Origin: Gammaproteobacteria bacterium
Lineage (GTDB): Bacteria; Pseudomonadota; Gammaproteobacteria; Eutrophobiales; Eutrophobiaceae
Assembly (NCBI GenBank): GCA_965248145.1
Contig: OZ252091.1
Location: forward strand, 3,218,082-3,282,081
Direction of reading: 5' to 3'
DNA: 64,000 bases
How positions within the stretch are numbered: the first letter of the stretch is position 1; the number at the start of each line of letters is the position of its first letter. Below, in pieces: positions 26,048-47,854 of the stretch. The position numbers and the translations under genes are program-made. The notes under the pieces were generated by a model that ran no database searches, was not told where the DNA came from, and saw only the letters and a list, made by a program, of their open reading frames with translations.

Positions 26048-26057
26048 GGATACGAGG

Positions 26058-26936: not shown

Positions 26937-26938
26937 AA

Positions 26939-28207: not shown

Positions 28208-28230
28208 CCCCGCAGTCGTTTTAACGAAAA

Positions 28231-28927: not shown

Positions 28928-30235
28928 TCAGCCCGTAATTGCCTCATACAAAGTTCCACTCAGGACAAAGATCAGGATTGCCGGAGCGGCCCATTTGATC
29001 CAGAAAAAGTAAATGGATGACAGCAGCTTGTACTTTGTGCCGAAAACCTGCCTGACTGCATCTGCTCTGCCGATTACCCAGGCGAGCGCAAGCAAGGCAA
29101 GACAGCCGCCAATCAGCAGTCCGGCAGAACCGAAGAGCAGGTCCGCAATACCGATCAGTCCGGGATAAAAGGTAAAGAAAACAGCTAACAGGGCCTGAAT
29201 CACCACTAAAATAATCAACAGCCGCGTCTTGCTGATACGGACGACTTTGGAATCACCCAGCAGGCCCCCTACTACCGCTTCAATCACGGCAACGTAGGAA
29301 AGCAACGCTACCAGAAAAAGAGAGAGCAGCATCAAACTGCCGAACAAACGGCCACCGGGAATGGCATTGAACAAACCGGGCAGGGTTTCAAACAGCAGCG
29401 TCGGTCCTGCCGTCAAATCCATGCCGAATACGAGCAGGGCCGGGATAAGATATAACGCCGCCAATAATGCCGCGCCGGTATCACCGATGCATGTCATCAC
29501 GGCTAACCTGGGCAGTTTGATGTCGTCCTTCAGGTAGCTGCCGTAGATCAAGGTAAGAGTCGCCCCCAGGCCGATTGAAAAATAGGCCTGACCCATAGCG
29601 GCAAAAACCTCGGTAAACCCTATCTTGCTGAAATCCACTTGCAGGAATACCGATAAATGCGATGTGGCTCCCGGCAGGTTCAATACCTTGTAGACAAGAT
29701 AAAAACTGACCAGGAAGAAAAATGGGACAAACAGGTTACTGACAAACTCAATACCTTTTCTGACGCCGCGATGTATGATGAAAGCGGAAACTAAAAGGAC
29801 AAACAATGCCAGGAATAACTGTAGCGAGTGGTTGCTCAGGCCTGTTTTGAAGGCGGGAGTCGTTGCCGCGCTGAACCCGTGCAGTGCCGAATAATAACCA
29901 CTATAGAAAATATTGCCGACGATAACGAGATAATACCCCCCCGCTATAGAGAGGGAAAACAACAGGCCATAACCAATCAGCCGTCCATATACGGGACCGA
30001 ACGTCGCCGTAAAAGCGCCGATGGTCCCTTGCCGCGTATGTCTCGCCAGTGACCACTCCGCCATCAACGCGGGTAAAGACAGAAAGACCACACAGGCAAT
30101 AAATAAAACCAGGAACGCACTGCCCCCATGGCTGCCCATCATATAAGGGAAACGCCATACATTGCCGATACCGATAGCGAGGCCGGCGGTCGCCATCAAA
30201 GACGTTAAAAAAGAACTGAAGCGCTGGGTCGGCAA
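28928..30235 (-). CDS. sodium-dependent transporter (NSS/SNF family)
   Basis: 435 aa, 11-12 TM segments. The N-terminal motif IGIGNVWRFPYM is an NSS family hallmark. Confidence 0.8.
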   Translation of the reverse strand: MPTQRFSSFLTSLMATAGLAIGIGNVWRFPYMMGSHGGSAFLVLFIACVVFLSLPALMAEWSLARHTRQGTIGAFTATFGPVYGRLIGYGLLFSLSIAGGYYLVIVGNIFYSGYYSALHGFSAATTPAFKTGLSNHSLQLFLALFVLLVSAFIIHRGVRKGIEFVSNLFVPFFFLVSFYLVYKVLNLPGATSHLSVFLQVDFSKIGFTEVFAAMGQAYFSIGLGATLTLIYGSYLKDDIKLPRLAVMTCIGDTGAALLAALYLIPALLVFGMDLTAGPTLLFETLPGLFNAIPGGRLFGSLMLLSLFLVALLSYVAVIEAVVGGLLGDSKVVRISKTRLLIILVVIQALLAVFFTFYPGLIGIADLLFGSAGLLIGGCLALLALAWVIGRADAVRQVFGTKYKLLSSIYFFWIKWAAPAILIFVLSGTLYEAITG

Positions 30236-30381: not shown

Positions 30382-31659
30382 TTAACGTTTATTGACAAAA
30401 AATCGTTTTCCCTTCATTTCAAACCGTGGCAGTGTTCCCGGTTCAACTACCGTTATATTTGGCCGCAAACCCAGTTTGTCCACCATCAACTCTGCCAGCG
30501 CCGCTTGTGTCGTGGCCCGACCTGCGTCAGCGTTGACTTCAATTTCCATATCGATTTCATCCAGTTCCCCCGTGGTTGAGATGGTTGTTCGATATTCGTC
30601 TATCTCATCCAGGCTGCGTACCAGGTTATCGATCGCGCCGGGGTAAATATTGACGCCGCGTACAGTTACCATATCATCCATACGACCGATAATGCCACCT
30701 TCAAAGTACAGCAGGTGGCGCGTTGTCGCCGCTGGCCCGGTATAGCGGACCATGTCTCCTGTTTTGTAACGGATAACCGGGAAGCCCCAACGCCCCAGGT
30801 TGGTCAGCACCAGTTCGCCTGCTTCACCCTGCTCGACGCGCTTACCTTCCGCGTTGAGTACCTCAGCGATAAATTCGGTCTCGTTAACCAATAAACCATT
30901 CGGGTGCGTACACGCCTCGAAGCCATAAGCGCCGACTTCCGATGCGCCTGAATGATCACGGCATTTCGCCGACCAGCCTGATTCAATGCGCCGTTTAATC
31001 GCCGGTATGTTGGTGCCCGGTTCACCGGTGTGAATCGTCGTATGGATTTTTAATTCACCGATGTCAAAATCATGTTCACCGGCCACTTTCAACAGGTGCA
31101 AAGCGTAGCTCGGCGTACAACACAACACCGTACAACCTGTTTCCCGCATTAACTTCAAACGTTCCAGCGAGGAGCGACCACCGCCCGGGATCAATAACGC
31201 CCCCAGTTGTCGGGCGCCTTCCACGGCGGCCCAGAAGCCGATAAACGGGCCAAAAGAAAAAGCGCAAAATATCCTGTCGTTCGCATTCACGCCGGAAGAA
31301 GAAAAAACCTGTTTCCAGCAACGCCCCCACCAGTCCCAGCTTTCCGGTGTATCCAACACCCGCAATGGCTCGCCTTTAGTCCCCGAGGTCTGGTGAAAAC
31401 GGGTGTATCGAGATAATGGATACGTCAGGTTTGCCGCAAAATGACCATTATCCTGATCTGCGACCAGTTCACTTTTTTCAGTGAACGGCAGGCGTGAAAT
31501 ATCATCCAGGGACTGAATACTGTCCGGTTTAATCCCGGCCTCATCAAACTTTTTTGTATAAAACCGGTTCTTACGATAAATCTCAGCAAAAGTGTGATGC
31601 AATTTAGTTAATTGCAATTCTTCAATGGCGGTTCTTGAGGACAGGGTTAAGGCGTCCAT
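30382..31659 (-). CDS. phenylacetate-CoA ligase family (PaaK-like) aryl/arylalkyl acid-CoA ligase
   Basis: 425 aa. The PaaK-like N-terminal region and the AMP-binding core (TSGTKGEP, YKTGD) are present. Confidence 0.8.
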   Translation of the reverse strand: MDALTLSSRTAIEELQLTKLHHTFAEIYRKNRFYTKKFDEAGIKPDSIQSLDDISRLPFTEKSELVADQDNGHFAANLTYPLSRYTRFHQTSGTKGEPLRVLDTPESWDWWGRCWKQVFSSSGVNANDRIFCAFSFGPFIGFWAAVEGARQLGALLIPGGGRSSLERLKLMRETGCTVLCCTPSYALHLLKVAGEHDFDIGELKIHTTIHTGEPGTNIPAIKRRIESGWSAKCRDHSGASEVGAYGFEACTHPNGLLVNETEFIAEVLNAEGKRVEQGEAGELVLTNLGRWGFPVIRYKTGDMVRYTGPAATTRHLLYFEGGIIGRMDDMVTVRGVNIYPGAIDNLVRSLDEIDEYRTTISTTGELDEIDMEIEVNADAGRATTQAALAELMVDKLGLRPNITVVEPGTLPRFEMKGKRFFVNKR

Positions 31660-31662: not shown

Positions 31663-32685
31663 TCACAACAGGGATTGGCGCGCGATTTTTTTCCTGGTTG
31701 CGCGCATATCATCACCGCGAAGCTCCCGCAGCGCGCAGCCCGCAATATGGCCGATAGCCCGTTTCCGCCAGTGGGGAGCAAAGTCCGTGTTCTTTACCGG
31801 CTTCGCCGCCTTGACGCAGGCGGCCGCAGCTTCTTCAATCACCTCGTCCGTCAATCTCCTGCCCCGTAGAAATTCATTGGCCGTTGCGCAAAAGACAGGT
31901 TGCGACGCGACCGCGCCCAATACGATACGCGCGTCTGTGATACTGTCGCGCGCATCAAATTGAATCGTAGCAGCCACCGATAAAACCGGAAAATCAAATG
32001 AACCGCGACGCCGCAATTTCCAGTAGGCGCTTCTTGACCCGTTTGCATCCGGCAAAACGATATTCGTCAGGATCTCCTCTTTTTTACGCGTTAAATAATG
32101 GATGCCGTCGTCCTGGTACAAGTCTTTCAATGGAACCGTCCGCTGTCCGTTTGCCGACACGAGCTCCACTTCGGCGCCCAATGAAATAAGCGCCGGCGCC
32201 GTATCCGTTGACGAGGTTGCCAGGCACTTTTTACTGCCGGTAGCGACCCAGCAGATGTCGCCGTCTTTTTTCATGCAGAAGTCGATAGCCTTGCGCCATT
32301 CATGGTTTTGATCGTAGTAATTGCAGCGGGTATCCAGACAGATGTTGCCGCCCAATGTGCCCATGTTGCGCAGGAGCGGCGTCGCCACCTGCGCGGCGGC
32401 CTGCCATAATCCTTTGTAGGCTGATTTGATTGTGTCATTTTCCACCAGGGAAGTGAGGGTTACGCCCGCGCCGATGGTCAGGCCGGTCCCGTTCGTCAAC
32501 TTCTTTAACGCGTCGATATGACGCAAGGCCACCAGGGTCTGCGGCGTTTGCTGACGGCGCTTCATGTTGGGCAATAAATCGGTGCCACCGGCGATTACCA
32601 TGACGTTGTCTTCAGCGGCCAGGATCTGCGCCGCCTCGCTGACGTCCCGCGGCCGGTAATAATGGAACCGGGGCAGGCGCATCAT
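31663..32685 (-). CDS. molybdenum hydroxylase FAD-binding medium subunit with Cys-rich insertion (4-hydroxybenzoyl-CoA reductase HcrB-like)
   Basis: FAD_binding_5 domain (VMVIAGGTDLLPNMK). An extra loop ICLDTRCNYYDQ...FCMKKDGDICWV...KKCLA lies within the protein. The roughly 340-aa length is as in HcrB rather than CoxM. Confidence 0.75.
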   Translation of the reverse strand: MMRLPRFHYYRPRDVSEAAQILAAEDNVMVIAGGTDLLPNMKRRQQTPQTLVALRHIDALKKLTNGTGLTIGAGVTLTSLVENDTIKSAYKGLWQAAAQVATPLLRNMGTLGGNICLDTRCNYYDQNHEWRKAIDFCMKKDGDICWVATGSKKCLATSSTDTAPALISLGAEVELVSANGQRTVPLKDLYQDDGIHYLTRKKEEILTNIVLPDANGSRSAYWKLRRRGSFDFPVLSVAATIQFDARDSITDARIVLGAVASQPVFCATANEFLRGRRLTDEVIEEAAAACVKAAKPVKNTDFAPHWRKRAIGHIAGCALRELRGDDMRATRKKIARQSLL

Positions 32686-35165
32686 GATGCGGCCACCTGT
32701 TTGAATTTATCCATCTCGTGCATCTTGGCGGCCCGTTTGCGCTGCGGTTTATTGACGGCGTTGCCATCCCCCCCCTCCCAGGGTGGCGGCACCCGGAACG
32801 GCTCCGGCCACTCGAGGTCAGGAAACCGGTCAGGTCCCACCCGGCCTGCTCCCCCCCTGGCCTTGTCATCCAGGGCCTTCAATATCTTTTCGGCGGTAAC
32901 CGGCACCTCATCAATACGCACGCCCACGGCGTCGTAAACCGCATTGGCCACAGCCGGCATGATGGGCAGCAAGGGGCCTTGTCCCGCTTCCTTGGCGCCG
33001 AACGGGCCATTATCATCGGGGTGTTCAATCAAGTCCGTGATCACTTCCGGCATATCATGGGAGGTGGGACTCTTGTATTCCAGCATCGAAGGCTCACGAT
33101 GAACCAGCGCGCCGGATAAGCGCGCCGGCAGTCGGCGAAAGGCGGACTCTTCCATCAAGGCTTCTCCCAATCCCATGTAAACGCTGCCCTCCACCTGGCC
33201 GCGGGCGAGTACGGGGTTCATGGCGCGACCGAGGTCATGGGCGATATAGATCCTGGGAACGGTGAGCCAACCGGTGGACGTATCGACGTCCACCTCGACC
33301 ACGGCCGCCGTATAGGAGTAAGCCGGCGATGGCCCGACACCCCCGCCTTTATATTTCCCGGGTGGGGCCGCCGGCGTATAGGAGCCCGTCGTGCCCAGGG
33401 CGCCGTGCATTTCCTCCGCGCAAACCAGCGCTTTTTGAAACGACAGTATCTGCTCGGAATGGCCGGCGTTAAAGACCTGGCCGTTGGCAAAAACGATGGA
33501 TTCAACGCCCGTATCAAATTTTTGCGCAACCGCCTGCGCGATCAACTCGCGGGCCCGCTCCGCCGCCTGGATAGCGGCATTGCCCATCATCAGGGTCACG
33601 CGGGATGAATAGGATCCCAGGTCGACCGGGGTCAAGTCCGTATCGCCGGTGACGCAGCGGATATCCAGGGGATCGATGCCCAGTATCTCGGCAATCGTGG
33701 CGACCAGTACGTCGTCGGAACCCTGGCCGATTTCCGTGGCCCCGCAAAATACCGTGACCTTGCCGCTACGATCCAGCTTCAATTGCACACCGGAATGGGG
33801 CATGGCGTTCCAGTAAATGGAATTGCCCGCGCCGGTCAGGTAACTGGAACAAGCCAGACCCAGGCCCTTCCCTTCCGGCAGTTTCCCGTATTTATCCTTC
33901 CAGCCGGAACGTTCGGTCACCGTATGGATACATTCCGCCAGACCGATGCTGCCGATCTTCAGGTAATTGGCCGTCAGCGCGCCGGGTTTCTCAACGATAT
34001 TAAGACGAAACTCGGCGGGATCGATTTTCAGCTTTTCCGCTATCTTGTCCAACTGCACTTCCTGGCCGAAACGCGGTTGCACCGTTCCATGACCCCGTTT
34101 CGGGCCGCAGGGGGGTTTGTTGGTGAACATGCGGCAGGCGTCAAAGGCATAGCGCGGCAGGTGATAGGTGACGGGTTGCAACACGGCCGTATAGAAGGTA
34201 CTGGCAACGCCATAGGAGCCGTAGGCGCCGCCGTCCAGCAAGGTCTGTAAATGCATACCGGTCAGCGCGCCGCTCTTGTCGACGCCGGTCCGGAATTTCA
34301 TCAATACCGGGTGGCGGCCGCGGTGACAATAAAATACTTCTTCGCGGTTCAGGCAGATCTTGACGGGGCGGCCCAGCATCATGGCGGCTTTTACCACCAC
34401 TATCTCATGATGAAACGGATCGGACTTGCCGCCGAAACCGCCGCCGTTGGGACTGGCAATGACGCGGATGCGCGCCATGGGGACGTCCAGCGCTCTGGCA
34501 ACGGCGCGATGTACGTAATGGGGACATTGCGTGCTTGACCACAGGGTAACCCGGCCATCGGCTTCCAACATCCCGACGGCGGCATGTTGCTCCAGGGGCA
34601 GGTGGGTATTGCCCTCAAAGAAGAAAATGTCTTCGAACACGTGATCGCTGTTTGCCAGGCTCTCCTCCACGTCGCCAAATTCGTAACTGAGGCGTTTATG
34701 GATATTTCCCTCTTCGCTGTATTCATGTAAACGCGCGGCAGGATTATTCAGGGCCTCGGCGGGATCGGAGATCGTATCCAAGGGTTCATACTCGACCCTG
34801 ATCAGGTCCAGAGCCTCCTCCGCGGCAAACTCATCCCGGGCAACAACGGCCGCGACCGGATCACCCACAAAACGCACTTTTTCCCTGCATAAGGGCTGTT
34901 CATCCTGGCTTACCGGCAGGATGCCGTATTCATTGGGGAAATCCTTGCCGGTCAATACCAGCTTCACTCCGGGATGCCGCTCAGCCCTGCCGGTGTCAAC
35001 GGACCTGATAAGAGCATGGGGCACGTGGGAACGCAGCAGTTTACAGTGCAACATGCGCGGCAACATAATATCGTCGGCAAACTGGGTGCGGCCGGTCACC
35101 TTATCGGCGCCATCCACGCGCCGGCGCGGCTTGCCGATGACGGAGAATGTATCCGTATCACTCAT
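32682..35165 (-). CDS. molybdopterin-dependent hydroxylase large subunit (xanthine dehydrogenase family; 4-hydroxybenzoyl-CoA reductase HcrA-like)
   Basis: 827 aa. Ald_Xan_dh_C and MoCo-binding domains are present. There is an unusual roughly 60-aa Pro/Gly/Lys-rich C-terminal tail. It overlaps the downstream gene by 4 bp. Confidence 0.8.
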   Translation of the reverse strand: MSDTDTFSVIGKPRRRVDGADKVTGRTQFADDIMLPRMLHCKLLRSHVPHALIRSVDTGRAERHPGVKLVLTGKDFPNEYGILPVSQDEQPLCREKVRFVGDPVAAVVARDEFAAEEALDLIRVEYEPLDTISDPAEALNNPAARLHEYSEEGNIHKRLSYEFGDVEESLANSDHVFEDIFFFEGNTHLPLEQHAAVGMLEADGRVTLWSSTQCPHYVHRAVARALDVPMARIRVIASPNGGGFGGKSDPFHHEIVVVKAAMMLGRPVKICLNREEVFYCHRGRHPVLMKFRTGVDKSGALTGMHLQTLLDGGAYGSYGVASTFYTAVLQPVTYHLPRYAFDACRMFTNKPPCGPKRGHGTVQPRFGQEVQLDKIAEKLKIDPAEFRLNIVEKPGALTANYLKIGSIGLAECIHTVTERSGWKDKYGKLPEGKGLGLACSSYLTGAGNSIYWNAMPHSGVQLKLDRSGKVTVFCGATEIGQGSDDVLVATIAEILGIDPLDIRCVTGDTDLTPVDLGSYSSRVTLMMGNAAIQAAERARELIAQAVAQKFDTGVESIVFANGQVFNAGHSEQILSFQKALVCAEEMHGALGTTGSYTPAAPPGKYKGGGVGPSPAYSYTAAVVEVDVDTSTGWLTVPRIYIAHDLGRAMNPVLARGQVEGSVYMGLGEALMEESAFRRLPARLSGALVHREPSMLEYKSPTSHDMPEVITDLIEHPDDNGPFGAKEAGQGPLLPIMPAVANAVYDAVGVRIDEVPVTAEKILKALDDKARGGAGRVGPDRFPDLEWPEPFRVPPPWEGGDGNAVNKPQRKRAAKMHEMDKFKQVAAS

Positions 35166-35701
35166 CAGCCAACGTTGCCTGCCGTTCGTCTTCCTGACTG
35201 GTTGACGCGCAGGATCGCTTCTTCCACGGATTCAAAGATCTGTTGATACCCGGTGCAGCGGCACAGGTTGCCGGACAGGGCTTCCCGGATCTGCTCCCGG
35301 TCGGGATTGGGTTGCCGGTCGAGTAAGGCCTTGCAGGTAAGCAGGATGGCCGGCGTACAATAACCGCATTGGGCGCCGCCGAGATCGGCGAACGCCGATT
35401 GCAAGGGATGTAATTCCGCGGCCTCCGCCATACCTTCTATGGTATCGATGGCGCAACCTTCAGCTTCCAGGGCCAGTGACAGGCAGGAAAGTATCGGCTC
35501 GCCGTCAACCAGAACCGCACAGGCGCCGCATTCGCCCAACTCACAACCGTGTTTGGTGCCGGTCAGTTGCAGGTCTTCCCGCAACATCTCCAGCAGCGTT
35601 TTGTAAGGCGCCACCGAGACCTGCAGCGGCTCACCGTTGACCTGGCAACTGATGTGGGCATTCTCCTGTGTATCTCGTTTAAGCGTTGTGACCGTGTTCA
35701 C
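35165..35701 (-). CDS. (2Fe-2S)-binding small subunit of the molybdenum hydroxylase (HcrC/CoxS-like)
   Basis: Plant-type cluster (CELGECGACAV) and a second cluster (GAQCGYCTPAILL...NLCRCTGY). Confidence 0.85.
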   Translation of the reverse strand: MNTVTTLKRDTQENAHISCQVNGEPLQVSVAPYKTLLEMLREDLQLTGTKHGCELGECGACAVLVDGEPILSCLSLALEAEGCAIDTIEGMAEAAELHPLQSAFADLGGAQCGYCTPAILLTCKALLDRQPNPDREQIREALSGNLCRCTGYQQIFESVEEAILRVNQSGRRTAGNVG

Positions 35702-35865: not shown

Positions 35866-36339
35866 ATGAATAAAAACACAACCGAACATGCCGTGGATTT
35901 CACCACACTCAATGGGTTGATCGGCTTTCAGGTCCGGCAGGCGCAGCTCCAGGTTTTCAACCATTTCCGGAAAACAGTCGGAAAAACGGGAATCACGCCA
36001 GGCCAGGCCGGTATTCTCATTTTAATCGGGAATAATCCTGCTATCAGCCAAGCTGCCCTGGCCCGCGCTATTGGGGTGGAACGGGCCACGCTGGGTCAAA
36101 TCATCGCGGACATGGAGGCCAAATCCTGGGTGGAACGCCATCCATCCCATTCAGACAAGCGCAGTTACGCGCTGGCACTGTCATCATCCGGCAAGACCTT
36201 CCTGGAAAAAATGTTGCAGAAGATCACTGTCCATGAGCAGGACATGATCGCTCACTTAAGCATAAAAGAACGACGGGAATTTCTGCGTTTGTTACTTAAA
36301 TTTTCCGGTGTTGATAGACATGACGACAAACGTGGCTGA
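35866..36339 (+). CDS. MarR-family transcriptional regulator
   Basis: 157 aa with a MarR wHTH (GITPGQAGILILIGNNPAISQAALARAIGVERATLGQIIADME). Divergent from the hcr-like operon. Confidence 0.8.
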   Translation: MNKNTTEHAVDFTTLNGLIGFQVRQAQLQVFNHFRKTVGKTGITPGQAGILILIGNNPAISQAALARAIGVERATLGQIIADMEAKSWVERHPSHSDKRSYALALSSSGKTFLEKMLQKITVHEQDMIAHLSIKERREFLRLLLKFSGVDRHDDKRG

Positions 36340-36547: not shown

Positions 36548-36817
36548 TTGCCCATTGAAAATCATGAAAGTTTATTGACCACCATGCTGCACCGTCACCT
36601 TAATCATGAGCGTTTTACTCTTGCCGGGATCGATGATGTGATCTCTCGAGGCCGCTGGCGGGATTGGGTCGACCTGCGTCATGCAATCCTTAGAGACCGG
36701 TCATTGCTGGATAAAATAGAACGGGTCTGTCACGCCCATCTTGTTGACCCTTACGCCCAACGTTATCACTTCTGGATGAACTATGTCGAGGAGCGCCGCA
36801 CCTGCGACCCTGCCTGA
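36548..36817 (+). CDS. hypothetical small protein, possible antitoxin partner of the downstream nucleotidyltransferase
   Basis: 89-aa ORF with a TTG start. It overlaps the downstream gene by 35 bp. No motif recognised. Confidence 0.3.
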   Translation: MPIENHESLLTTMLHRHLNHERFTLAGIDDVISRGRWRDWVDLRHAILRDRSLLDKIERVCHAHLVDPYAQRYHFWMNYVEERRTCDPA

Positions 36818-37637: not shown

Positions 37638-39134
37638 ATGACATTCAAACTACCCGACAGGGACGAATTGAAAACCATTGCCGGTTCCATGGGATTGACT
37701 GTGGATGACACACTGGCGGAAACCATGCTTGAACAACTGGCAATGTTCGGCGGCGGCTATCAATTCATGGATCAACTGGAAGATAACCTGCCGGAAATCC
37801 AATATCCTCACAGGAGTTATCGACCCCCGACCGGGGAAGAAAACCCACTGGGCGCCTGGTACGTCAGGACTGACCTGAAAGGCAGGGACGCGGGACCGCT
37901 CAAGGACAGGACGGTTGCCGTCAAGGATAATATCTTTGTCGCAAATGTTCCCATGATGAACGGCGCTTCGATCCTGGAAGGTTTCATACCGGACTTCGAT
38001 GCCACCGTCGTTACCCGGTTGCTGGATGCCGGCGCTGAGATTACCGGCAAGGCGGTATGTGAATTTCTTTGTGTTTCCGGCGGCAGCGCCACAGCCAGTT
38101 CCGGCGTTGTCAGCAACCCGCATGATCACGATTACTCTGCCGGCGGTTCTTCCTCAGGCAGCGCTGCGCTGGTCGCCAACGGTGACGTGGATATGGCTTT
38201 GGGCTGCGACCAGGCCGGTTCGGTGCGCATTCCGTCGAGTTTCTGTGCTGTCTACGGTATGAAGGCCACTCACGGCCTGCTCCCCTACACGGGCATCATG
38301 GGCATGGAGGCCATGTTGGACCATGTCGGCCCCATGACGACAAACGTGGCCGATAACGCCCTGCTGCTGGAAGTCCTGGCGGGTTACGACGGGATGGACA
38401 GCCGCCAACGCCAATTACGAGTGCATAAATACACTGAGGCGCTCGGTGAGGATATCAGGGGAATGAAAATCGCCGTGGTCAAAGAGGGCTTTGGTCATCC
38501 CCTGTCGGAACCCGGGGTTGATCATTGTGTGCGTGACGCGGCAAGTCAATTCGCCGAGATCGGCGCGGAGGTGGCTGAAGTATCCATCCCCATGCACCTG
38601 GATGGCGTCCCTCTCTGGGGCAGTATTATCACTGACGGGCTTTGGGATACCATGCGCCATAACGGTCTCGCCGTAAACACCAACGGCTTTAACTCGCCGG
38701 CGTTGGAAAAATTCATGTCCGGCTGGCAGGATAAATTCGACCGGTTTCCCGTCAACCTGCACCTGATCCTGGTGCTGGGCAAGTACCTGGAGAAATATCA
38801 GGGCAAGTATTACGCCAAAGCAAAAAATCACCTGCCGAAACTGGCCAAGGCCTATAACGATGTCTTGCAGGATCATGACCTGTTACTGATGCCGACGACG
38901 TTGATGCAACCGCAAAAGAATCCGGCGCCTGACTCAGACCCTACCGAAAATATTATATTCATGGCGTTTAACACGGTACTCAATACCTGTCAGTTCGATA
39001 TTACCGGCCACCCGGCGATGTCGCTGCCGTGCGGCCGGCGCAACGGCCTGCCCGTAGGCATGATGCTGGTAGGCAAACACTTTGACGAACCGGCTATCTA
39101 CCGGGCTGCCTACGGGTTTGAACAGTCTTGTTAG
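37638..39134 (+). CDS. amidase (amidase-signature family)
   Basis: 498 aa. The AS signature GGSSSGSAALVANG and the Ser-cisSer-Lys triad context are present. Confidence 0.8.
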   Translation: MTFKLPDRDELKTIAGSMGLTVDDTLAETMLEQLAMFGGGYQFMDQLEDNLPEIQYPHRSYRPPTGEENPLGAWYVRTDLKGRDAGPLKDRTVAVKDNIFVANVPMMNGASILEGFIPDFDATVVTRLLDAGAEITGKAVCEFLCVSGGSATASSGVVSNPHDHDYSAGGSSSGSAALVANGDVDMALGCDQAGSVRIPSSFCAVYGMKATHGLLPYTGIMGMEAMLDHVGPMTTNVADNALLLEVLAGYDGMDSRQRQLRVHKYTEALGEDIRGMKIAVVKEGFGHPLSEPGVDHCVRDAASQFAEIGAEVAEVSIPMHLDGVPLWGSIITDGLWDTMRHNGLAVNTNGFNSPALEKFMSGWQDKFDRFPVNLHLILVLGKYLEKYQGKYYAKAKNHLPKLAKAYNDVLQDHDLLLMPTTLMQPQKNPAPDSDPTENIIFMAFNTVLNTCQFDITGHPAMSLPCGRRNGLPVGMMLVGKHFDEPAIYRAAYGFEQSC

Positions 39135-39204
39135 TTTCTGGTTTCCAGTTTTTAGTTGTTAGTGGTTTTTAGAAACTGACAACTAAAAACTAACAACTAA
39201 TAAC
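39131..39204. repeat. AAACTAAAAACTA-family repeat (direct plus inverted) between amidase and AOR
   Basis: ttagtttctggtttccagtttttagttgttagtggtttttagaaactgacaactaaaaactaacaactaa. Confidence 0.7.
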
Positions 39205-39255
39205 CAGCATTTAATGATTTATAATAGGTAATTTTTCCGGGGCAACAATATATAT

Positions 39256-40968
39256 ATGCGTAACTATCTTCATATTGACTTGAAAGAGCGGACAGTGAGA
39301 GCTGTCGAACAGGATGGAGAAGAACTGGTCCGCGTTGGCCGCTATCTCATCGCCAAAACTCTTGTGGAAGAAAATATTGCAGGTGTCGACCCACTGTCGC
39401 CGGATAATCCGTTAATTTTTTCCGCCGGCCCTTTTGCCGGCACCAATTTCTCCAACGCCAATCGTACCAGTGTCGGTTGCAAAAGCCCGCTGACGGGCGG
39501 CATCAAGGAATCCAATGCCGGCGGTACGTTCGGCGTGGCGCTGGGCCAATTGCACTTGTCGGGATTTACCCTGCATGGCGCCGCCGCCGAGTGGGTGATT
39601 ATTCATCTCAGAAAAGATGGTAGCTGCAGTTTTGACTCCGCCGCAGGTTTCATGGGCAAGGGCAATTTTGAAACGGCCGTGCTGCTGCATGAAAAATACG
39701 GCAAAAAGGTCAGCCTGGCCCTGTGCGGCCCTGTCGGTGAGCGCCAGGGACTGCTTGCCGGCATCGCCATCAGTGATACCGATCGGCGTCCCGCCAGGCT
39801 GGCGGCGCGGGGTGGCGTCGGGGCCGTCCTGGGCAGCAAGAAAGTGAAGGCAATCGTGGCCGACCTGAACAAAATGCCGCACTTGCACGAACGTAAGAAA
39901 GTCATGGGGACGGTGCGCCACTATGCCGAAAAACTGGGCGAAGACCCGATGATAGACAGCTACAAACGTTTCGGCACGGCCATGATGGCGGATTACATGA
40001 ACCACGTAGGCGCCCTGCCGGTGCGTAATTTTTCTTCCGGTCGCCTGGTAGATACCAGCAAGGAAACCATGAAGATGGGCGGTGATTTCATTCGCGAACA
40101 GAATATCGCCCGCGGCGGTGAACCGGACCATGCCTGTATGCCCGGTTGCCTGATCCGTTGCAGCAACGTCTATGCCGACGCCGACGGCAATGAAATCGTA
40201 TCGCCCGTCGAGTATGAAACGCTGGGATTGCTGGGTACCAATTGCGGCATCAAGGAACCCGATGAACTGGCAAAGTTGAATGCCGTCGCCAACGACCTCG
40301 GTATCGATACGATTGAGACCGGCGCCATGGTCGGCGTACTGATGGAAGCCGGTCTGGGCAAATTCGGTGACGCCGGGTTTGTCACCGACGTACTGGAACA
40401 GATCCGCAACGGCACGGAGCAAGGCCGGCTCTGGGCGCACGGCACAGCTTTTGTCGGTGAGCATTACCAGGTTCAGCGGGTGCCGGTGATCAAGAGACAG
40501 GCCATCAGCGCCTATGATCCCCGCGTGGTCGAGGCAACGGGCATTACCATGATGGTAACGGCCCAGGGCGCGGACCACACGGCGGGGAACGTCCCCAGGA
40601 TGGAAACCGCGGACAAGTCCATAGAGGAGGTGGCCGGGGCCAGCCATGACGCCCAGGTGCTGTGCGCGGCAACGGATTCATTGGGATTCTGTATTTTTGG
40701 CCGTACCGTAACGAGCGCTGAGTTAGATGCAGTAACCGCAGCGATTAACGCCGCGGTCGGTACTGATCTTGATGCGTCTTTCTTCAACGAACTGGGCCGG
40801 GAAACATTAAGACTCGAGAAAGAGTTCAACCGGGCCGCCGGCTTCACGGAAGAAGATGATGAATTACCCGAATTCTTCTACAAGGAGGCGTTGGAACCCA
40901 GCCTGCGGGTCGCGCGCTTTCATACGAAAGAAGTCAACGAATTCGTTGACAACTGGTGGCGGCAATAA
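39256..40968 (+). CDS. tungsten-type aldehyde:ferredoxin oxidoreductase (AOR family)
   Basis: The N-terminal AFOR_N domain is strongly recognisable (IFSAGPFAGTNFSNANRTSVGCKSPLTGGIKESNAGGTFG). AFOR_C follows. 570 aa. Confidence 0.85.
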   Translation: MRNYLHIDLKERTVRAVEQDGEELVRVGRYLIAKTLVEENIAGVDPLSPDNPLIFSAGPFAGTNFSNANRTSVGCKSPLTGGIKESNAGGTFGVALGQLHLSGFTLHGAAAEWVIIHLRKDGSCSFDSAAGFMGKGNFETAVLLHEKYGKKVSLALCGPVGERQGLLAGIAISDTDRRPARLAARGGVGAVLGSKKVKAIVADLNKMPHLHERKKVMGTVRHYAEKLGEDPMIDSYKRFGTAMMADYMNHVGALPVRNFSSGRLVDTSKETMKMGGDFIREQNIARGGEPDHACMPGCLIRCSNVYADADGNEIVSPVEYETLGLLGTNCGIKEPDELAKLNAVANDLGIDTIETGAMVGVLMEAGLGKFGDAGFVTDVLEQIRNGTEQGRLWAHGTAFVGEHYQVQRVPVIKRQAISAYDPRVVEATGITMMVTAQGADHTAGNVPRMETADKSIEEVAGASHDAQVLCAATDSLGFCIFGRTVTSAELDAVTAAINAAVGTDLDASFFNELGRETLRLEKEFNRAAGFTEEDDELPEFFYKEALEPSLRVARFHTKEVNEFVDNWWRQ

Positions 40969-42683
40969 ACGTGCCCAACCTGGAAAAAGCTAGCGATAAC
41001 ATGCCGGAACTGCCGTCATCAACGGACGCCGTACTGCTGGATTTTCAAACGCATCCAGATCGGTATCGCCATTGGAAGCTGACGACATCCGGTTCCATTG
41101 CCAACCTGGATATGGACGTGAACGAAGACGGCGCCATGTTCCCCGGTTACGAACTGAAACTGAACTCCTATGATATCGGTGTCGATATCGAACTCTACGA
41201 TGCGATTCAGCGACTGCGTTTTGAACACCCGGAAGTGAAAACCGTAGTGGTCAGTTCCAATAAGCCCACCATGTTCTGCGCCGGCGCCAATATCCGTATG
41301 CTGGCGGGCGCCTCCCACGGCCATAAGGTGAATTTCTGCAAATTTACCAACGAGACCCGGAACGCCATTGAAGACGCCGGGGAGTTCTCCGGCCAGCGTT
41401 ACCTGTGTGCGTTAAATGGCACTGCAGCCGGCGGTGGTTATGAACTGGCGCTGGCCATGGATTACCTGATCCTGATCGATGACGGCAATGCCGCCGTATC
41501 CTTACCGGAAATCCCCTTGCTTGCCGTCTTGCCCGGCACCGGCGGGCTAACGCGGATTGTTGATAAAAGAAAGGTGCGCCGGGACCTGGCTGACGTATTC
41601 TGTACCGTAGAGGAAGGCGTCAAAGGGCAACGGGCCGTTGCCTGGCGCCTGGTGGATGAGATTGTCCCCAGCTCCAGGTTCGCGGAGCGAGTGGCAGAGC
41701 GGGCTCAGGAAATGAGCCAAACGTCTGACCGCCCCGACACGGCCGGGGGGGTGCGGTTGACGCCGTTATCAAGGACGATCAAGACAGACAGTATCGAGTA
41801 CGACTGGCTGCGCCTGACTATAGACAGGGAAAACCGCAACGTCACCTTGCAAATCAAGGGGCCTGGTATCGACGCGCCGGACACTGTGGCAAACGCGATC
41901 GCTATGGGAGATCGATTCTGGCCGCTGGCCCTGGCCCGGGAACTGGATGACGCCTTGCTGCACCTGCGTTTCAACGAACCGGCCATCGGCACCATAATTA
42001 TCAAATGCGCCGGCGCTGCCGAGTCCGTCAAAGACTATGACGGGTTCCTGCTCAACCACAAGGATGACTGGCTGGTACGGGAAATCATCCTCTACTGGAA
42101 ACGTACGCTGAAACGGGTTGACGTGACGTCCCGCACCAGCTTTGCTTTCATAGAACCGGGAAGCTGTTTCGTGGGTTTCCTGGCCGAGTTTCTGTTCGCC
42201 GTGGACCGCAGTTACATGCTGGACGGGCAGTTTGAAGATGACGACACGCCACCGGCCACCATTATGCTGACTGAAAATAACTTCGGCCCCCTGCCCATGG
42301 CAAATGGTTTGACGCGCCTGGCAACCCGTTTCCTCGGCGAACCGGAAAGTGTCGGAACCACGAGAACATTTATCGGTCAAAATATTGACTCGGTGCTGGC
42401 CTCGGACCTGGGGCTGGTTACCTTCACCCCCGATGACATCGACTGGGAGGACGAGATAAGAATGTTGCTGGAAGAGCGGGCCAGTTTCTCTCCCGATGCC
42501 CTGGTAGGGATGGAAGCCAATTTACGTTTTGCCGGGCCGGAAACCCTGGAGACCAAGATTTTCGGCCGCCTCACCGCCTGGCAGAACTGGATATTTCAAC
42601 GACCCAACGCGGTCAGCGAGGCGGGCGCGTTGCAGCGTTATGGCACGGGCCAGCGTCCCGAGTATGACAAAAACAGGGTATAA
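40956..42683 (+). CDS. boxC: benzoyl-CoA-dihydrodiol lyase / 2,3-epoxybenzoyl-CoA dihydrolase (BoxC, crotonase superfamily)
   Basis: 575 aa, unusually long for a crotonase-fold protein (FCAGANIRMLAGAS...GTAAGGGYELALAMDYLIL). It lies adjacent to boxB. The start overlaps the AOR stop. Confidence 0.7.
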   Translation: MAAINVPNLEKASDNMPELPSSTDAVLLDFQTHPDRYRHWKLTTSGSIANLDMDVNEDGAMFPGYELKLNSYDIGVDIELYDAIQRLRFEHPEVKTVVVSSNKPTMFCAGANIRMLAGASHGHKVNFCKFTNETRNAIEDAGEFSGQRYLCALNGTAAGGGYELALAMDYLILIDDGNAAVSLPEIPLLAVLPGTGGLTRIVDKRKVRRDLADVFCTVEEGVKGQRAVAWRLVDEIVPSSRFAERVAERAQEMSQTSDRPDTAGGVRLTPLSRTIKTDSIEYDWLRLTIDRENRNVTLQIKGPGIDAPDTVANAIAMGDRFWPLALARELDDALLHLRFNEPAIGTIIIKCAGAAESVKDYDGFLLNHKDDWLVREIILYWKRTLKRVDVTSRTSFAFIEPGSCFVGFLAEFLFAVDRSYMLDGQFEDDDTPPATIMLTENNFGPLPMANGLTRLATRFLGEPESVGTTRTFIGQNIDSVLASDLGLVTFTPDDIDWEDEIRMLLEERASFSPDALVGMEANLRFAGPETLETKIFGRLTAWQNWIFQRPNAVSEAGALQRYGTGQRPEYDKNRV

Positions 42684-42787
42684 CACGGTAATAGGCGTCA
42701 CTCCGGCGAATCATGCCCTGGAACGTTGTAATCCGGGGGTCGGAATCCGGGGACGTGCTTCATAGGCATGACATCAGTAGCAAGGAT

Positions 42788-44233
42788 ATGACCATGGGCA
42801 ATGTAGATTACGATAGCTTGATCCCCAACAACGTAGGCCTTGCCTCGGACCGGCGCCTGCAACGGGCCCTGGAGCGCTGGCATCCCGGCTATATCGACTG
42901 GTGGAAAACCATGGGACCGGATAGCTTCCAGGACCTGGATGTGTACCTGCGCACGGCCATCGGCGTTGAACCTGAGGGCTGGGCCCGGTTCGGCTACGTG
43001 AAAATGCCGGAGTATCGCTGGGGCATATTACTGGCGCCCCGGGAAGAAGACAGGAAGATCGCCTTTGGCCGGCATAAGGGCGAACCGGTCTGGCAGGAAA
43101 TACCGGGAGAATATCGCGCCATGTTACGGCGCCTGGTGGTCATCCAGGGCGATACGGAACCCGCTTCTGTGGAACAGCAACGCTTCCTGGGGCATATCGC
43201 CCCCTCCTTGTATGACATGCGCAACGTCTTTCAGGTCAACGTCGAAGAAGGCCGCCACCTGTGGGCCATGGTGTACCTGCTGCATAAATACTTTGGTCGC
43301 GACGGCCGGGAGGAGGCGGAGGATTTACTCAGGCGGCGTTCCGGCGATCAGGATAAACCCCGCATCCTTGGCGCGTTCAATGAAAAAACGCCGGATTGGT
43401 TGTCTTTCTTCATGTTTACCACCTTTACCGACCGGGACGGCAAGATGCAACTGGAATCCCTGGCCCAGTCGGGCTTTGACCCCCTGGCCCGCACTACCCG
43501 TTTCATGCTCACCGAGGAAGGCCACCACATGTTCGTCGGTCGAACCGGTATCGAGCGCGTCCTGAGACGCACCTGCGAGGTGATGAAGGAACATAACATC
43601 ACTGACCCGACGGATACCGGGGCAGTCAGGAACCTGGGCGTCATCGACCTGCCGACCATGCAGAAGAAAATAAACTTCCATTATTCCGTCACCCTGGATT
43701 TATTCGGCGCCGAGATTTCCACCAACGCATCCAATGCCTTCAACGCCAGCCTTAAAGGCCGTTTCCGGGAAACCACTATCGACGATGATCATCAACTCCA
43801 TAACAGCGCCTACCCGGTATTGAAACACGTCAACGGGAAACTGGTCAGCGTGGACGAGCCGGCCATCAATGCAGTGAACAGCCGCCTCTGCGATGATTAT
43901 ATTGCTGATTGCGAACAAGTCCTTACCACCTGGAACAAGGCCATTGCCGATTATGGATACGCATACCGCTTGAGTCTGCCCAGCCGGGCCTTTCACCGGG
44001 CGGTAGGTGAGTTCAGTGACGTCCATGCTACGCCGGAGGGCGCTCTAATCGAACAAGCTGAGTGGGAACGACGCCGGGAAGAATGGTTGCCGAACAATGA
44101 CGACCTGGAATTTCTATTGTCGCTCATGGAACAGGTCATCGAACCGGGAAAATTCGCCCATTGGATAGCCCCCCCCAGAGCCGGCATCAACGGCAAACCC
44201 GGTGATTTTGAATACGTCAAAATAGCCGCTTAA
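42788..44233 (+). CDS. boxB: benzoyl-CoA 2,3-epoxidase subunit B (diiron oxygenase BoxB)
   Basis: The N-terminus NVDYDSLIPNNVGLASDRRLQRALERWHPGYIDWW matches the BoxB family. Length from the internal ATG at 42788 is 481 aa; the ORF track extends to 42713. Confidence 0.75.
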   Translation: MTMGNVDYDSLIPNNVGLASDRRLQRALERWHPGYIDWWKTMGPDSFQDLDVYLRTAIGVEPEGWARFGYVKMPEYRWGILLAPREEDRKIAFGRHKGEPVWQEIPGEYRAMLRRLVVIQGDTEPASVEQQRFLGHIAPSLYDMRNVFQVNVEEGRHLWAMVYLLHKYFGRDGREEAEDLLRRRSGDQDKPRILGAFNEKTPDWLSFFMFTTFTDRDGKMQLESLAQSGFDPLARTTRFMLTEEGHHMFVGRTGIERVLRRTCEVMKEHNITDPTDTGAVRNLGVIDLPTMQKKINFHYSVTLDLFGAEISTNASNAFNASLKGRFRETTIDDDHQLHNSAYPVLKHVNGKLVSVDEPAINAVNSRLCDDYIADCEQVLTTWNKAIADYGYAYRLSLPSRAFHRAVGEFSDVHATPEGALIEQAEWERRREEWLPNNDDLEFLLSLMEQVIEPGKFAHWIAPPRAGINGKPGDFEYVKIAA

Positions 44234-44288: not shown

Positions 44289-44678
44289 TCATTCTGCAGC
44301 TATCAAGTCATCAATATTTATACGCAAAGCCGCCGCCAGCTTTTTAAGTGTGTCAATGCCCCCGGTTTTCTTGCCACTTTCAATTTGCGCGATGTAGCCC
44401 TGTTGCACACCAGACCTGGTTTCAAGTTCTTTTTGGGTCAGGCCGCGATATTCGCGCCAGATTCGCAACCGTTGTTCTTCATCCTGAAGCAACTTGTGCG
44501 CAACGTCGGCAGGAATAAGCTCATCTCCACCGGACGCCAACTCACTCATGGCATCATCCGCCGCCCGGATGTCCTCCGCGTCTTCGGCCAGTTCCAGCAA
44601 TCGGTGGTACAATTCAATAGGCAAAACCGCATATTCCGGTTGTCCGTCTTTTTCAATAACCTGTACGTGATTCATCAT
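44289..44678 (-). CDS. HigA-like XRE-HTH antitoxin
   Basis: 129 aa with a C-terminal HTH (LTQKELETRSGVQQGYIAQIESG). It lies downstream of the toxin and overlaps it, in the higBA order. Confidence 0.7.
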   Translation of the reverse strand: MMNHVQVIEKDGQPEYAVLPIELYHRLLELAEDAEDIRAADDAMSELASGGDELIPADVAHKLLQDEEQRLRIWREYRGLTQKELETRSGVQQGYIAQIESGKKTGGIDTLKKLAAALRINIDDLIAAE

Positions 44679-45972: not shown

Positions 45973-46118
45973 ATATCTGTTATAAAACATCCTGTCTGAC
46001 GAGATAATTTAAACGCCTGGGGCATCTGCCGGGTTGCAGCAATTCCTTTTTAATCTGTTCTGATGCAAATAATATCAAAATGATTCAGTCCCCAGGGAAT
46101 AGCGGATAGAATGGACCC

Positions 46119-47798
46119 ATGACAAGATACGCTGACATAGGCAAGGCCAGGCAGATCAGTCGTCAGGCGCGTCGTGCATACCAATTCAACAAGCCCCGAG
46201 AGATCGACTCCGGCGAAATTAGCCACTTCCCGATGATCATCGCGGGCGGCGGGCCCATCGGGCTGGCGACTGCCATAGACCTTGCCCGTTGTGGCATTCG
46301 ATCCGTCGTCCTGGAAAAACACAATACCGTCACTGCTGGCTCCCGCGCTATCTGCTGGGCGAAACGTACCTTGGAAATACTTGACCGTATCGGGACCAGC
46401 GAACGCATGATGGAAAAAGGCGTGGTTTGGAACCAGGGCTGGGTCTACTTCGGCCAGGAAACCGAACCGATTTACAAGTTCGATTTACTGCCGGATAAAG
46501 AGCAGAAGTTTCCCGCGTTCATCAACCTGCAACAATTCTATGCCGAGGAATATTTGATCGATTTGTTTCCGGACCACGAGGAGACCGAAATTCGCTGGCA
46601 AAATGAAGTTATCGGCGTGGATAACGCCGCGGACAAAGTCACCGTCACGATCAAAACCCCCGCCGGGCATTACACGCTCAGTTGTGACTACCTGATTGCC
46701 GCGGACGGCCATCGCAGCCCGGTCCGGGACGCGCTGGATCTCGATTTCGTGGGCCGTGTGTTCGAGGACAACTTTCTTATTGCCGACGTGCGCATGAAAG
46801 CGGACTTTCCGGCAATTCGGCGCTTCTGGTTCGACCCGCCGTTCAATCCGGGCCAAACCTCGCTGATCCATAAACAGGCCGACGACGTCTGGCGTATCGA
46901 TTTTCAGATGGGCTGGGACATTGACCGTGATGAGGTGATGAAAGAAGAAAACATCGATGCCAGGATAAAAGCCTTTCTCGGTTCGGACCTTGAATTTGAA
47001 TACGAATGGGTAAGCCTGTACACGTTTAAATGTTGCCGGATGGAAAAATTCGTCCATGGTCGCGTCATTTTTGCCGGCGACTCCGCCCATCTCGTCTCGC
47101 CTTTCGGCGCGCGCGGCGCCAACGGCGGGTTGCAGGACGTTGACAATCTTGTCTGGAAGCTCAACCTGGTTTTAACAGGCGCCGCCCCGCCCGGCTTGAT
47201 CAACAGCTATGATGACGAACGGATCCATGGCGCAGAAGAAAACGTGATGAATTCATCCCGGAGTACGGATTTCATGACCCCCAAAAGTGAAATCAGTCTC
47301 GCCTTCCGCAATGCCACCCTGGAGCTTGCCAAAGATTTCGAATTTGCCCGCAAGTTCGTCAACCCGGGACGTCTTTCCGTCCCCAGTATCCTGGATGGTT
47401 CACCATTGAATACACCGGATGAAGATGAGTTCAGCGACAAGCAGCGGCCCGGCGCGCCCTGCCTTGACGCCCCTGTTTCCATCAACGGTGAGGACGCCTG
47501 GTTTTTAAACCAACTGGGGGACCGTTTCGTTGGTATTTATTTCAGCGAAGATGGAACAACGCCGGAAGAGATCAGTAGCATCGGCCTGGCTCAGGTCCCG
47601 GTTGAAACCATCACCGTGACCAGGACAAACAGCGGTGGCAACAATATCTTCGACAGCAAAGGCCTGTTACACCGGCACTATGATGCCCAGCCCGGCGCCT
47701 ATTACCTGATACGGCCTGACCAACACGTCGCCGCACGCTGGCGGGAATTCAACCTGGAAAAAGTATTAGACGCACTGGCCAGGGCAACCGGCCGATAA
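46119..47798 (+). CDS. FAD-dependent aromatic ring monooxygenase (MhpA/PheA-like, group A flavoprotein hydroxylase)
   Basis: N-terminal motif MIIAGGGPIGLATAIDL, then DG, then GD (FAGDSAHLVSPFGARGANGGLQD), with a C-terminal thioredoxin-like domain. The start may lie downstream of 46119. Confidence 0.75.
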   Translation: MTRYADIGKARQISRQARRAYQFNKPREIDSGEISHFPMIIAGGGPIGLATAIDLARCGIRSVVLEKHNTVTAGSRAICWAKRTLEILDRIGTSERMMEKGVVWNQGWVYFGQETEPIYKFDLLPDKEQKFPAFINLQQFYAEEYLIDLFPDHEETEIRWQNEVIGVDNAADKVTVTIKTPAGHYTLSCDYLIAADGHRSPVRDALDLDFVGRVFEDNFLIADVRMKADFPAIRRFWFDPPFNPGQTSLIHKQADDVWRIDFQMGWDIDRDEVMKEENIDARIKAFLGSDLEFEYEWVSLYTFKCCRMEKFVHGRVIFAGDSAHLVSPFGARGANGGLQDVDNLVWKLNLVLTGAAPPGLINSYDDERIHGAEENVMNSSRSTDFMTPKSEISLAFRNATLELAKDFEFARKFVNPGRLSVPSILDGSPLNTPDEDEFSDKQRPGAPCLDAPVSINGEDAWFLNQLGDRFVGIYFSEDGTTPEEISSIGLAQVPVETITVTRTNSGGNNIFDSKGLLHRHYDAQPGAYYLIRPDQHVAARWREFNLEKVLDALARATGR

Positions 47799-47851: not shown

Positions 47852-47854
47852 ATA

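Follow-up and report, generated by a model that had tools for sequence, protein, structure and literature searches.

A 64-kb stretch of DNA (hereafter the window), part of the 3.77-Mb circular metagenomic contig OZ252091.1 of a gammaproteobacterium, carries a gene for an aldehyde oxidoreductase of the AOR family directly upstream of boxC and boxB, two genes of the aerobic benzoyl-CoA (box) pathway. A preliminary description had read this arrangement as a hybrid benzoyl-CoA pathway in which the AOR stands in for the aldehyde dehydrogenase BoxD. Our analysis confirms the gene order, and the hybrid-pathway interpretation is partly supported. We class the cluster as a variant form of the one for the box pathway and regard the region as a clade-specific catabolic cluster for an aromatic acid that is organized in two divergent units. 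The minus-strand unit comprises a transporter, a PaaK-family CoA ligase and an enzyme of the 4-hydroxybenzoyl-CoA reductase (Hcr) type; the plus-strand unit comprises marR, an amidase gene, the AOR gene, boxC and boxB. The reading that we favour, with a probability of roughly 40%, is that a generalist AOR, co-transcribed with boxC, would cover the semialdehyde step of the box pathway and yield reduced ferredoxin. We favour this role because of the tight AOR-boxC junction, the retention of the AOR between the hcr and boxCB genes in the more distant locus L083 and the apparent absence of BoxD. A further argument comes from sister clusters, in which genes for korAB, another low-potential ferredoxin reducer, and for ferredoxins accompany boxCB and, in L090, also hcr. 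Throughout, L002–L010 denote close relatives of the AOR locus, L083–L089 further boxB contexts and L090–L169 a set of 80 metagenome boxB loci.

Results

The list of open reading frames (ORFs) and profile scans agree on four long ORFs on the plus strand between positions 37638 and 44233, which match an amidase, an AOR-family protein, BoxC and BoxB in the order and at the coordinates first described (Table 1). The AOR and boxC ORFs had been reported to overlap by 13 nt (40956 against 40968), and co-transcription had been deduced from this overlap. The overlap is an artefact of choosing the GTG that gives the longest boxC ORF. The junction reads TAAacGTG in the window and TAAccATG in L002, L005 and L007, and because of these homologous junctions we place the boxC start at the GTG at 40971, 2 nt past the AOR stop. 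The gene caller of the source contig also picks 40971, and the 2-nt spacing between AOR stop and boxC start is seen in four genomes. The two ORFs thus probably do not overlap. Between AOR and boxC in the window no terminator-like site was found on the plus strand, so co-transcription of the two genes is still likely: the original argument was wrong in detail, and the tight juxtaposition without a terminator takes its place. For boxB, the most likely start is 42788 or 42794 rather than 42713, and an AAGGA motif lies 8 nt 5′ of the boxB ATG.

BoxB matches the equivalog model TIGR03225 over its full length at 857.6 bits (cutoff 499.1) and aligns from end to end with 3PER, the structure of Azoarcus evansii BoxB. 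The motifs EEGRH, TEEGHH, DTEPAS and TDRDGK, which we take to be the di-iron ligand motifs of the A. evansii enzyme with their Glu/His pairs, are identical in this alignment. BoxC covers positions 1–548 of the 548 in TIGR03222 and likewise exceeds the equivalog cutoff, with 906.6 against 712.3 bits. The ratio of nonsynonymous to synonymous divergence (dN/dS) is 0.07–0.09 for boxB and 0.12–0.13 for boxC over dS values of 0.6–1.4; all genes of the cluster, including hcrA and those for the amidase and a downstream monooxygenase, fall between 0.06 and 0.14 at dS 0.6–1.7. These comparisons show a genuine BoxB and a genuine BoxC, both kept by purifying selection. Since this selection on boxB and boxC is strong, the box module is in use.

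The AOR-family protein matches the Pfam domains AFOR_N (179 bits) and AFOR_C (201.6 bits), both far over their gathering scores. Its best match in the Protein Data Bank (PDB) is the AOR of Pyrococcus furiosus (1AOR, 190 bits), followed by weaker matches to formaldehyde oxidoreductase, WOR83 and AorB of Aromatoleum aromaticum (8C0Z, 144.5 bits), while BamB matches over the N-terminal domain only. NDLGIDT and DSLGFC, which are DxxGxD/C pterin motifs, as well as PVEYE and H441 align with P. furiosus AOR and are invariant in the family; the EYE and H441 positions presumably correspond to the catalytic Glu313 and His448 of the P. furiosus enzyme. Four cysteines, candidate ligands of a [4Fe-4S] cluster, are also invariant in the family (C294, C298, C302 and C479), giving a C-x3-C-x3-C spacing plus a distal cysteine (residues 294–302, window 40135–40161). 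The aligned P. furiosus protein has C-x2-C-x3-C, and its Cys288 position is variable in the family, with Asp in the window and Ser in the consensus.

The protein shares with Class I single-subunit AOR/WOR enzymes (P. furiosus AOR and the WOR of Brevibacillus massiliensis) the two-domain AFOR architecture, the conserved pterin motifs, the presumed catalytic EYE and His positions and the lack of genes for partner subunits. As judged from these features, it joins the single-subunit (Class I) group of the recent WOR classification as a new member. It differs from P. furiosus AOR in its length (570 against about 605 residues) and its cysteine spacing, and its family is proteobacterial and uncharacterised. 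The AorABC enzyme of A. aromaticum (Class III, NAD-linked, acting on phenylacetaldehyde and benzaldehyde) resembles it in having a catalytic subunit of the same superfamily and an aromatic-catabolism context. However, the window protein is closer to P. furiosus AOR (190 against 144 bits), and gene calls and a motif scan found no genes for a poly-ferredoxin (WorS), a flavoprotein, AorA or AorC adjacent to it. The preliminary description had named membership of a phenylacetaldehyde-specific group as an outcome that would speak against its proposal; the weaker AorB match and the lack of partner genes rule out the multi-subunit AorABC type. No C-x2-C-x2-C-x3-C ferredoxin motif occurs in any frame of the window and six close loci.

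The label "tungsten-type", which the AOR had been given, has no basis in the sequence, which does not tell tungsten from molybdenum; among the window ORFs scanned there were no tungstate or molybdate transporter genes and no maturation genes. The combination of anaerobic and aerobic chemistry, initially called unusual, is less odd than was assumed because an O2-tolerant, ferredoxin-using single-subunit tungsten oxidoreductase has been described from an obligate aerobe (PMC13328260). In addition, AOR-based aldehyde oxidation has been proposed for the aerobic marine gammaproteobacterium Cycloclasticus (PMC12510462).

To place the AOR among its relatives, we scanned one genome per species and characterised the 80 best matches. 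Relatives occur in at least 562 species genomes. The 80 best are 64–91% identical and come mostly from Gammaproteobacteria (Granulosicoccaceae, Arenicellales, SUP05 and Acidiferrobacteraceae), with some from Betaproteobacteria and Caldilineaceae, which shows that these single-subunit aldehyde oxidoreductases form a large family whose proteobacterial hosts are mostly aerobic. The same-strand order AOR-boxC-boxB is kept in nine species-level genomes, out to a dS of about 1.7. Among the 80 best matches, boxC-boxB 3′ of the AOR together with an Hcr-type operon 5′ of it was found only in the closest group (L002–L007 and L009, at least 86% identity). The synteny of hcr, AOR, boxC and boxB extends to L083, where AOR, BoxB and BoxC are 85, 83 and 75% identical to those of the window. 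In L083 hcr is followed by an oppositely oriented AOR, which is divergent from hcrC at a distance of 191 nt, and then by boxC, boxB and a flavin-dependent (FAD) monooxygenase gene; there is no amidase. Searching the literature for the combination of boxB, boxC and AOR yielded no paper.

Elsewhere in the family the AOR has other neighbours: glcDEF-like glycolate oxidase genes on its 5′ side (8 loci), an XdhC-like cofactor-insertion gene on its 3′ side (7), a gene for a thiamine diphosphate (ThDP)-dependent decarboxylase (6) or an SDR gene (8). Such contexts are found in L033, L034, L038, L020 and others. Two loci, L055 and L016, were considered as a possible independent association of AOR with Hcr-type genes. 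The genes that follow the AOR there belong to the xanthine dehydrogenase family, and L055 gives no support for an AOR-Hcr pairing because its FAD subunit lacks the cysteine loop described below and is that of an ordinary oxidative enzyme. Overall, we show that the AOR, usually together with the amidase, is a stable element that hcr and boxCB blocks flank only in this clade.

BoxA is the NADPH-dependent reductase partner of BoxB. We searched for boxA and boxD by tblastn (E<1e-3) with BoxA of the Mycetohabitans boxC-boxB-boxA cluster and a BoxD query verified at 678 bits on NF008868, and neither has a match in the window, as had been stated. No BoxA homologue was found in the window, L002–L010 or L083–L089, where ferredoxin-domain noise was all that was returned, and BoxD gave no tblastn match in the flanks of the relatives. 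An aldehyde dehydrogenase and a ferredoxin were absent among the window ORFs scanned; korAB, ferredoxin, full-length boxR and benzoate-CoA ligase genes were absent from the window and L002–L010, and DUF4863/PnbB from the window. With the box clusters of Aromatoleum/Azoarcus evansii and Burkholderiales the window thus shares orthologous BoxB and BoxC (61 and 56% identical to the Mycetohabitans proteins) and the boxC-boxB order. Unlike them, it has no boxA after boxB, no boxD, no full-length boxR, no DUF4863/PnbB and no benzoate-CoA ligase; its neighbours are the AOR, amidase, MarR regulator, PaaK-family ligase and Hcr-type reductase instead.

We compared these absences with the 59 of the 80 metagenome boxB loci (BoxB 65–80% identical to that of the window) that extend at least 2 kb 3′ of boxB. 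Here boxA is present in 13 of 59, boxD in 2, Hcr-type genes in 4 and an AOR in none. The textbook order boxC-boxB-boxA is therefore that of a minority among these relatives, and the local absence of boxA and boxD singles out nothing because it is usual among related boxCB loci. Clusters with boxBC that lack BoxA or BoxD, locally or genome-wide, have also been noted for SAR324, Comamonadaceae and Paraburkholderia (PMC4782131, PMC10803450); neither of these two papers describes an AOR gene beside them, as there is in the window.

Genome-wide occurrence of BoxD was approximated by a protein database search with the BoxD of L085, covering the 120 best matches (at least 58% identity) and the members of ten large clusters. 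The matches were equated indirectly with BoxB contigs, and the database entries seem to describe the cluster representative rather than all members. In these partial lists, five of the eight megabase contigs from sister BoxB lineages have a BoxD orthologue, and none of the ten with a box-linked AOR does (Fisher p=0.0065). The sister contigs with both BoxD and BoxB measure 4,585,804, 2,950,993, 4,388,645, 1,698,779 and 2,658,411 bp.

Five sister contexts (BoxB 73–77% identical) have no boxA within 10 kb. L085 and L087 carry boxR divergent from boxC-boxB, a 2Fe-2S ferredoxin gene and korAB-like genes, and L085 also DUF4863 and BoxD. L088 has boxCB, a benzoate-CoA ligase and Hcr-type and PaaK-like genes. 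In L089, boxC-boxB-DUF4863-hcrCAB stand in one row with an FdxA-type ferredoxin nearby. L090 has FdxA, a CoA ligase, a 2Fe-2S ferredoxin and boxR on one side and boxC-boxB-DUF4863-korA-korB-hcrCAB on the other. The clusters span positions 4862–19000 of L090, 5178–16055 of L089, 1–13542 of L085 and 1–11440 of L087. These gene sets suggest a ferredoxin-linked Hcr/Box hybrid pathway in the sister clusters, perhaps with a BoxA-independent electron supply to BoxB. A search for an alternative conserved reductase 3′ of boxB in the boxA-less loci gave no clear candidate.

The divergent operon on the minus strand encodes three subunits of an Hcr-type molybdenum enzyme, the PaaK-family CoA ligase and an SNF-family transporter. 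For each of the three subunits of the reductase, the models for 4-hydroxybenzoyl-CoA reductase (4-HBCR) give the highest score or one close to it, and all three stay under the equivalog cutoffs: alpha with 766.6 against 994.55 bits (TIGR03194), beta with 297.3 against 404.55 (TIGR03195) and gamma with 168.6 against 257.8 (TIGR03193). The substrate may therefore differ from 4-hydroxybenzoyl-CoA. The FAD subunit aligns in one piece to HcrB of Thauera aromatica (1RM6_B), with every cysteine of the [4Fe-4S] loop matched by a cysteine, whereas the loop splits the alignment of ordinary XdhB and CoxM subunits into two pieces. The extra [4Fe-4S] loop is characteristic of the family member that depends on ferredoxin and works reductively. 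The alignments show the upstream enzyme to be, by prediction, of the 4-HBCR type with a [4Fe-4S] loop. The earlier assignment as a 4-HBCR-like enzyme thus stands for the type of enzyme, short of the equivalog cutoffs; the microaerobic lifestyle that had been derived in part from it cannot be inferred from these data. The dN/dS of the molybdopterin subunit is 0.07–0.10. The T. aromatica system of 4-HBCR, ferredoxin and KorAB resembles the window in its three-subunit Mo/FAD/Fe-S enzyme with the HcrB-specific loop and the sister clusters in their korAB-like and ferredoxin genes. In that system the enzyme is paired with a benzoyl-CoA reductase and with korAB; beside its Hcr-type enzyme the window has an O2-dependent epoxidase and an AOR instead.

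The PaaK-family ligase scores 233–250 bits on PaaK models with cutoffs of 646–700 and is not a phenylacetate-CoA ligase equivalog, although its best PDB matches are phenylacetate-CoA ligases (about 180 bits). A 47% identical copy adjoins the Hcr-type genes in L088. The amidase matches Pfam Amidase (287.8 bits) and exceeds the cutoff of NF005565 (654 against 545 bits). It also matches 3A1K and 3A1I over residues 6–496, the N-terminal helical domain included; 3A1K is the amidase of Rhodococcus sp. N-771 (PMC11732141).

The features of the two units are listed in Table 1. In the relatives L002, L005, L007 and L009 the MarR gene lies directly 5′ of the amidase gene. In the window, and only there, an AbiEii-like ORF (36783–37493) separates the two. 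An inverted repeat fills most of the amidase-AOR spacer and may act as an operator or attenuator or be a repeat element. Downstream of boxB follow genes for a 129-aa helix-turn-helix (HTH) protein, a HicA toxin and an FAD-dependent aromatic monooxygenase. The monooxygenase gene comes directly after boxB in L083 and L084 and is also found in L002, L006 and L007. The HTH protein (44289–44678, minus strand) matches the BoxR/BzdR-type model PRK08154 in the N-terminal HTH only (E=5.5e-12); the shikimate-kinase-like domain is missing, and none of the relatives was found to encode the protein.

Table 1. Positions of the cluster genes and associated features in the window.
Feature	Position	Strand	Support
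SNF-family sodium-dependent transporter, last gene of the divergent operon	28928..30235	-	NF037979 85 bits (cutoff 50); PF00209 in source gene calls; syntenic in L002, L005, L007, L009
PaaK-family aryl-acid CoA ligase	30382..31659	-	PaaK models 233–250 bits
Hcr-type FAD subunit with extra Cys-rich [4Fe-4S] loop	31663..32685	-	1RM6_B best PDB match, 197 bits
Hcr-type molybdopterin subunit	32682..35165	-	TIGR03194 best model, 766.6 bits
Hcr-type [2Fe-2S] subunit	35165..35701	-	XdhC, PucE and HcrC-type models 168–180 bits
MarR-family regulator in the divergent promoter region	35866..36339	+	Pfam MarR, MarR_2
Amidase-signature amidase, Rhodococcus sp. N-771 type	37638..39134	+	NF005565 654 bits; 3A1K/3A1I 425 bits
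AT-rich imperfect inverted repeat, amidase-AOR spacer	39129..39209	.	35-nt arms 74% complementary; inner 16-nt pair 94%
Predicted single-subunit AOR/WOR-family aldehyde oxidoreductase, 570 aa	39256..40968	+	AFOR_N, AFOR_C; 1AOR 190 bits
boxC, 2,3-epoxybenzoyl-CoA dihydrolase	40971..42683	+	TIGR03222 906.6 bits; start from homology and gene call
boxB, di-iron benzoyl-CoA 2,3-epoxidase subunit	42794..44233	+	TIGR03225 857.6 bits; 3PER 687 bits
FAD-dependent aromatic-ring monooxygenase, PRK08132 type	46119..47798	+	NF006002 763.8 bits

Toxin-antitoxin and mobile-type genes flank the cluster (20575–28725 and 45754–48541) and encode a HipA-like protein, an Xre/MbcA-type antitoxin domain, HicA and an Rpn/PDDEXK_2 nuclease. 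A UbiD-family decarboxylase gene (21213–22580) is syntenic with L008. The 3020-aa ORF at 49219–58281 probably encodes a giant surface protein, with Calx-beta and faint fn3 matches; it has a G+C content of 66–69% against about 50% in the flanks and a 165-bp tandem repeat at 56698–57118. The rest of the window is aerobe-like, with HPPD, cytochrome c maturation genes and TonB receptors.

Discussion

In the reading that we favour, a hydroxy-aromatic acid would be activated and then dehydroxylated to benzoyl-CoA by the Hcr-type enzyme, after which BoxB would form the epoxide and BoxC would open the ring. The generalist AOR, transcribed with boxC, would oxidise 3,4-dehydroadipyl-CoA semialdehyde along with other aldehydes and would so be a non-dedicated substitute for BoxD. 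Its electrons would pass to ferredoxin, the kind of reductant that the Hcr-type enzyme needs; in the sister clusters, korAB and ferredoxin genes may hold the same ferredoxin-reducing role.

Several observations weigh against this role of the AOR. The support for it is all by association, we know of no AOR that oxidises a CoA-thioester aldehyde, and the cluster contains no ferredoxin gene. The contig comparison suggests that the clade has no close BoxD orthologue, but the lists were partial and PaaZ and other aldehyde dehydrogenases were not searched. The AOR itself carries no mark of a new task: of the 213 alignment columns with 95% or more conservation among family members outside the clade, the box-linked AORs differ in two (M192L and V460A), both conservative, and V460A is common to the unlinked L008 and L010. 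The dN/dS of the AOR is 0.06–0.08, whether the partner genome is box-linked or not. This shows an AOR that is, on the evidence of its conserved columns, an ordinary family member without specialising substitutions; any action on a box intermediate would be that of a generalist. The proposed replacement of BoxD stands in part, with a local boxD gap that is real but usual in related loci and an AOR that is unspecialised.

The distribution of the linkage counts on the same side. No box genes were found near the AOR in about 70 other family loci (64–73% identity), and no AOR was found at boxB in any of the 80 further metagenome boxB loci. L008 (AOR 86% identical) keeps the amidase and the AOR and L010 (84%) the AOR alone, with boxCB and hcr absent within 10 kb in both. 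In a neighbour-joining tree of the AOR the clade is monophyletic with L008 and L010 as a nested sub-branch, which is consistent with one gain and one loss of the linkage; the AOR-boxCB linkage thus appears to have arisen once. The junction is also permissive: HipBA sits between AOR and boxC in L003 (12261–13870), a DUF1016/YhcG nuclease gene in L009 (11839–12855) and an AAA_14/DUF4143 ATPase gene in L083 (6949–8115), and the spacer is about 150 nt in L004 and L006. The gaps in L003 and L009, considered as places where boxA might lie, hold the HipBA module and the DUF1016 nuclease gene instead.

These patterns agree with an explanation that is unlikely overall, although it comes ahead of the other alternatives, namely that the AOR is a neighbour by history. 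The amidase-AOR pair would be a resident, aldehyde-detoxifying backbone, beside which boxCB and hcr landed in an insertion-prone region; the AOR would take no part in benzoyl-CoA degradation, and an unlinked dehydrogenase would handle the semialdehyde. Besides the varied, box-free neighbourhoods of the family outside the clade and the unspecialised AOR, a clean indel boundary speaks for it: nucleotide comparison of L009 with L008 reveals a 4.4-kb block (DUF1016 nuclease gene, boxC and boxB) that in L009 fits exactly into the gap from the AOR stop to a cytochrome oxidase operon and is missing from L008. We show that the AOR pre-exists and outlives the box module. The selfish genes at the AOR-boxC junction, the many toxin-antitoxin and nuclease-type genes around the cluster in the window and the frequency of box clusters without nearby boxD, with boxA- or boxD-less clusters noted by others as well, point in the same direction. 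On the other hand, the same-strand adjacency has outlasted three independent insertions and divergence to a dS of about 1.7, and the AOR of L083 has kept its place between hcr and boxCB despite the loss of the amidase. The 2-nt stop-start spacing in four genomes and the ten clade contigs on which no BoxD orthologue was seen, within the partial lists, likewise speak against this explanation.

A further alternative, which we consider improbable, assigns the amidase and the AOR to the supply of substrate: they would turn aromatic amides and aldehydes of the benzamide and benzaldehyde types, or their hydroxy forms, into the acid for activation, dehydroxylation and opening by BoxB and BoxC. The amidase of Rhodococcus sp. 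N-771, to which the window amidase is closest (425 bits), prefers benzamide, and marR, the amidase gene, AOR and boxCB are contiguous on one strand in the relatives. Aromatic aldehydes are the substrates on which characterised members of the family, both single-subunit and AorABC, show the highest activity (PMC13328260). However, amidase and AOR also occur without box or hcr genes nearby (L008), and L083 has the AOR and no amidase. The substrates of both enzymes are not readable from sequence, and the missing BoxD would be left unexplained.

A bolder version of the AOR role, in which the AOR replaces both BoxD and BoxA, oxidises the semialdehyde at a very low potential and passes the two electrons back via ferredoxin to BoxB, to the Hcr-type reductase or to both, is quite unlikely in our estimate. 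It has a parallel in the sister clusters, where korAB and ferredoxin genes accompany boxCB and hcr and boxA is missing. Were it true, the pathway would be a hybrid that joins "anaerobic" to aerobic benzoyl-CoA chemistry, recycles its electrons and does not depend on NAD(P)H. That boxCB without boxA is a decaying, non-functional leftover, so that the arrangement would have no physiological meaning, is very improbable: boxA, boxD, boxR and benzoate-CoA ligase are all absent locally, but the ORFs are intact with model scores far over the cutoffs, the presumed di-iron ligand motifs of BoxB are conserved, boxA-less boxCB loci are the majority among the relatives, and the purifying selection on boxB and boxC (dN/dS 0.07–0.13 over dS up to 1.4) contradicts it.

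If the AOR is merely a neighbour, the arrangement is an ordinary lineage-specific gene order. If instead the AOR serves the box pathway, this would be, to our knowledge, the first pterin-dependent, ferredoxin-linked aldehyde oxidation in an O2-dependent aromatic pathway, and it would show how an aerobe harvests the low potential of an aldehyde to drive a dehydroxylation that requires ferredoxin. Regardless of the AOR, most boxCB loci related to that of the window have no adjacent boxA, and in some gammaproteobacterial clusters boxCB occurs together with korAB, ferredoxins and an Hcr-type reductase. The boxA-less loci thereby raise a testable question, that of the electron donor of BoxB outside the model Betaproteobacteria.

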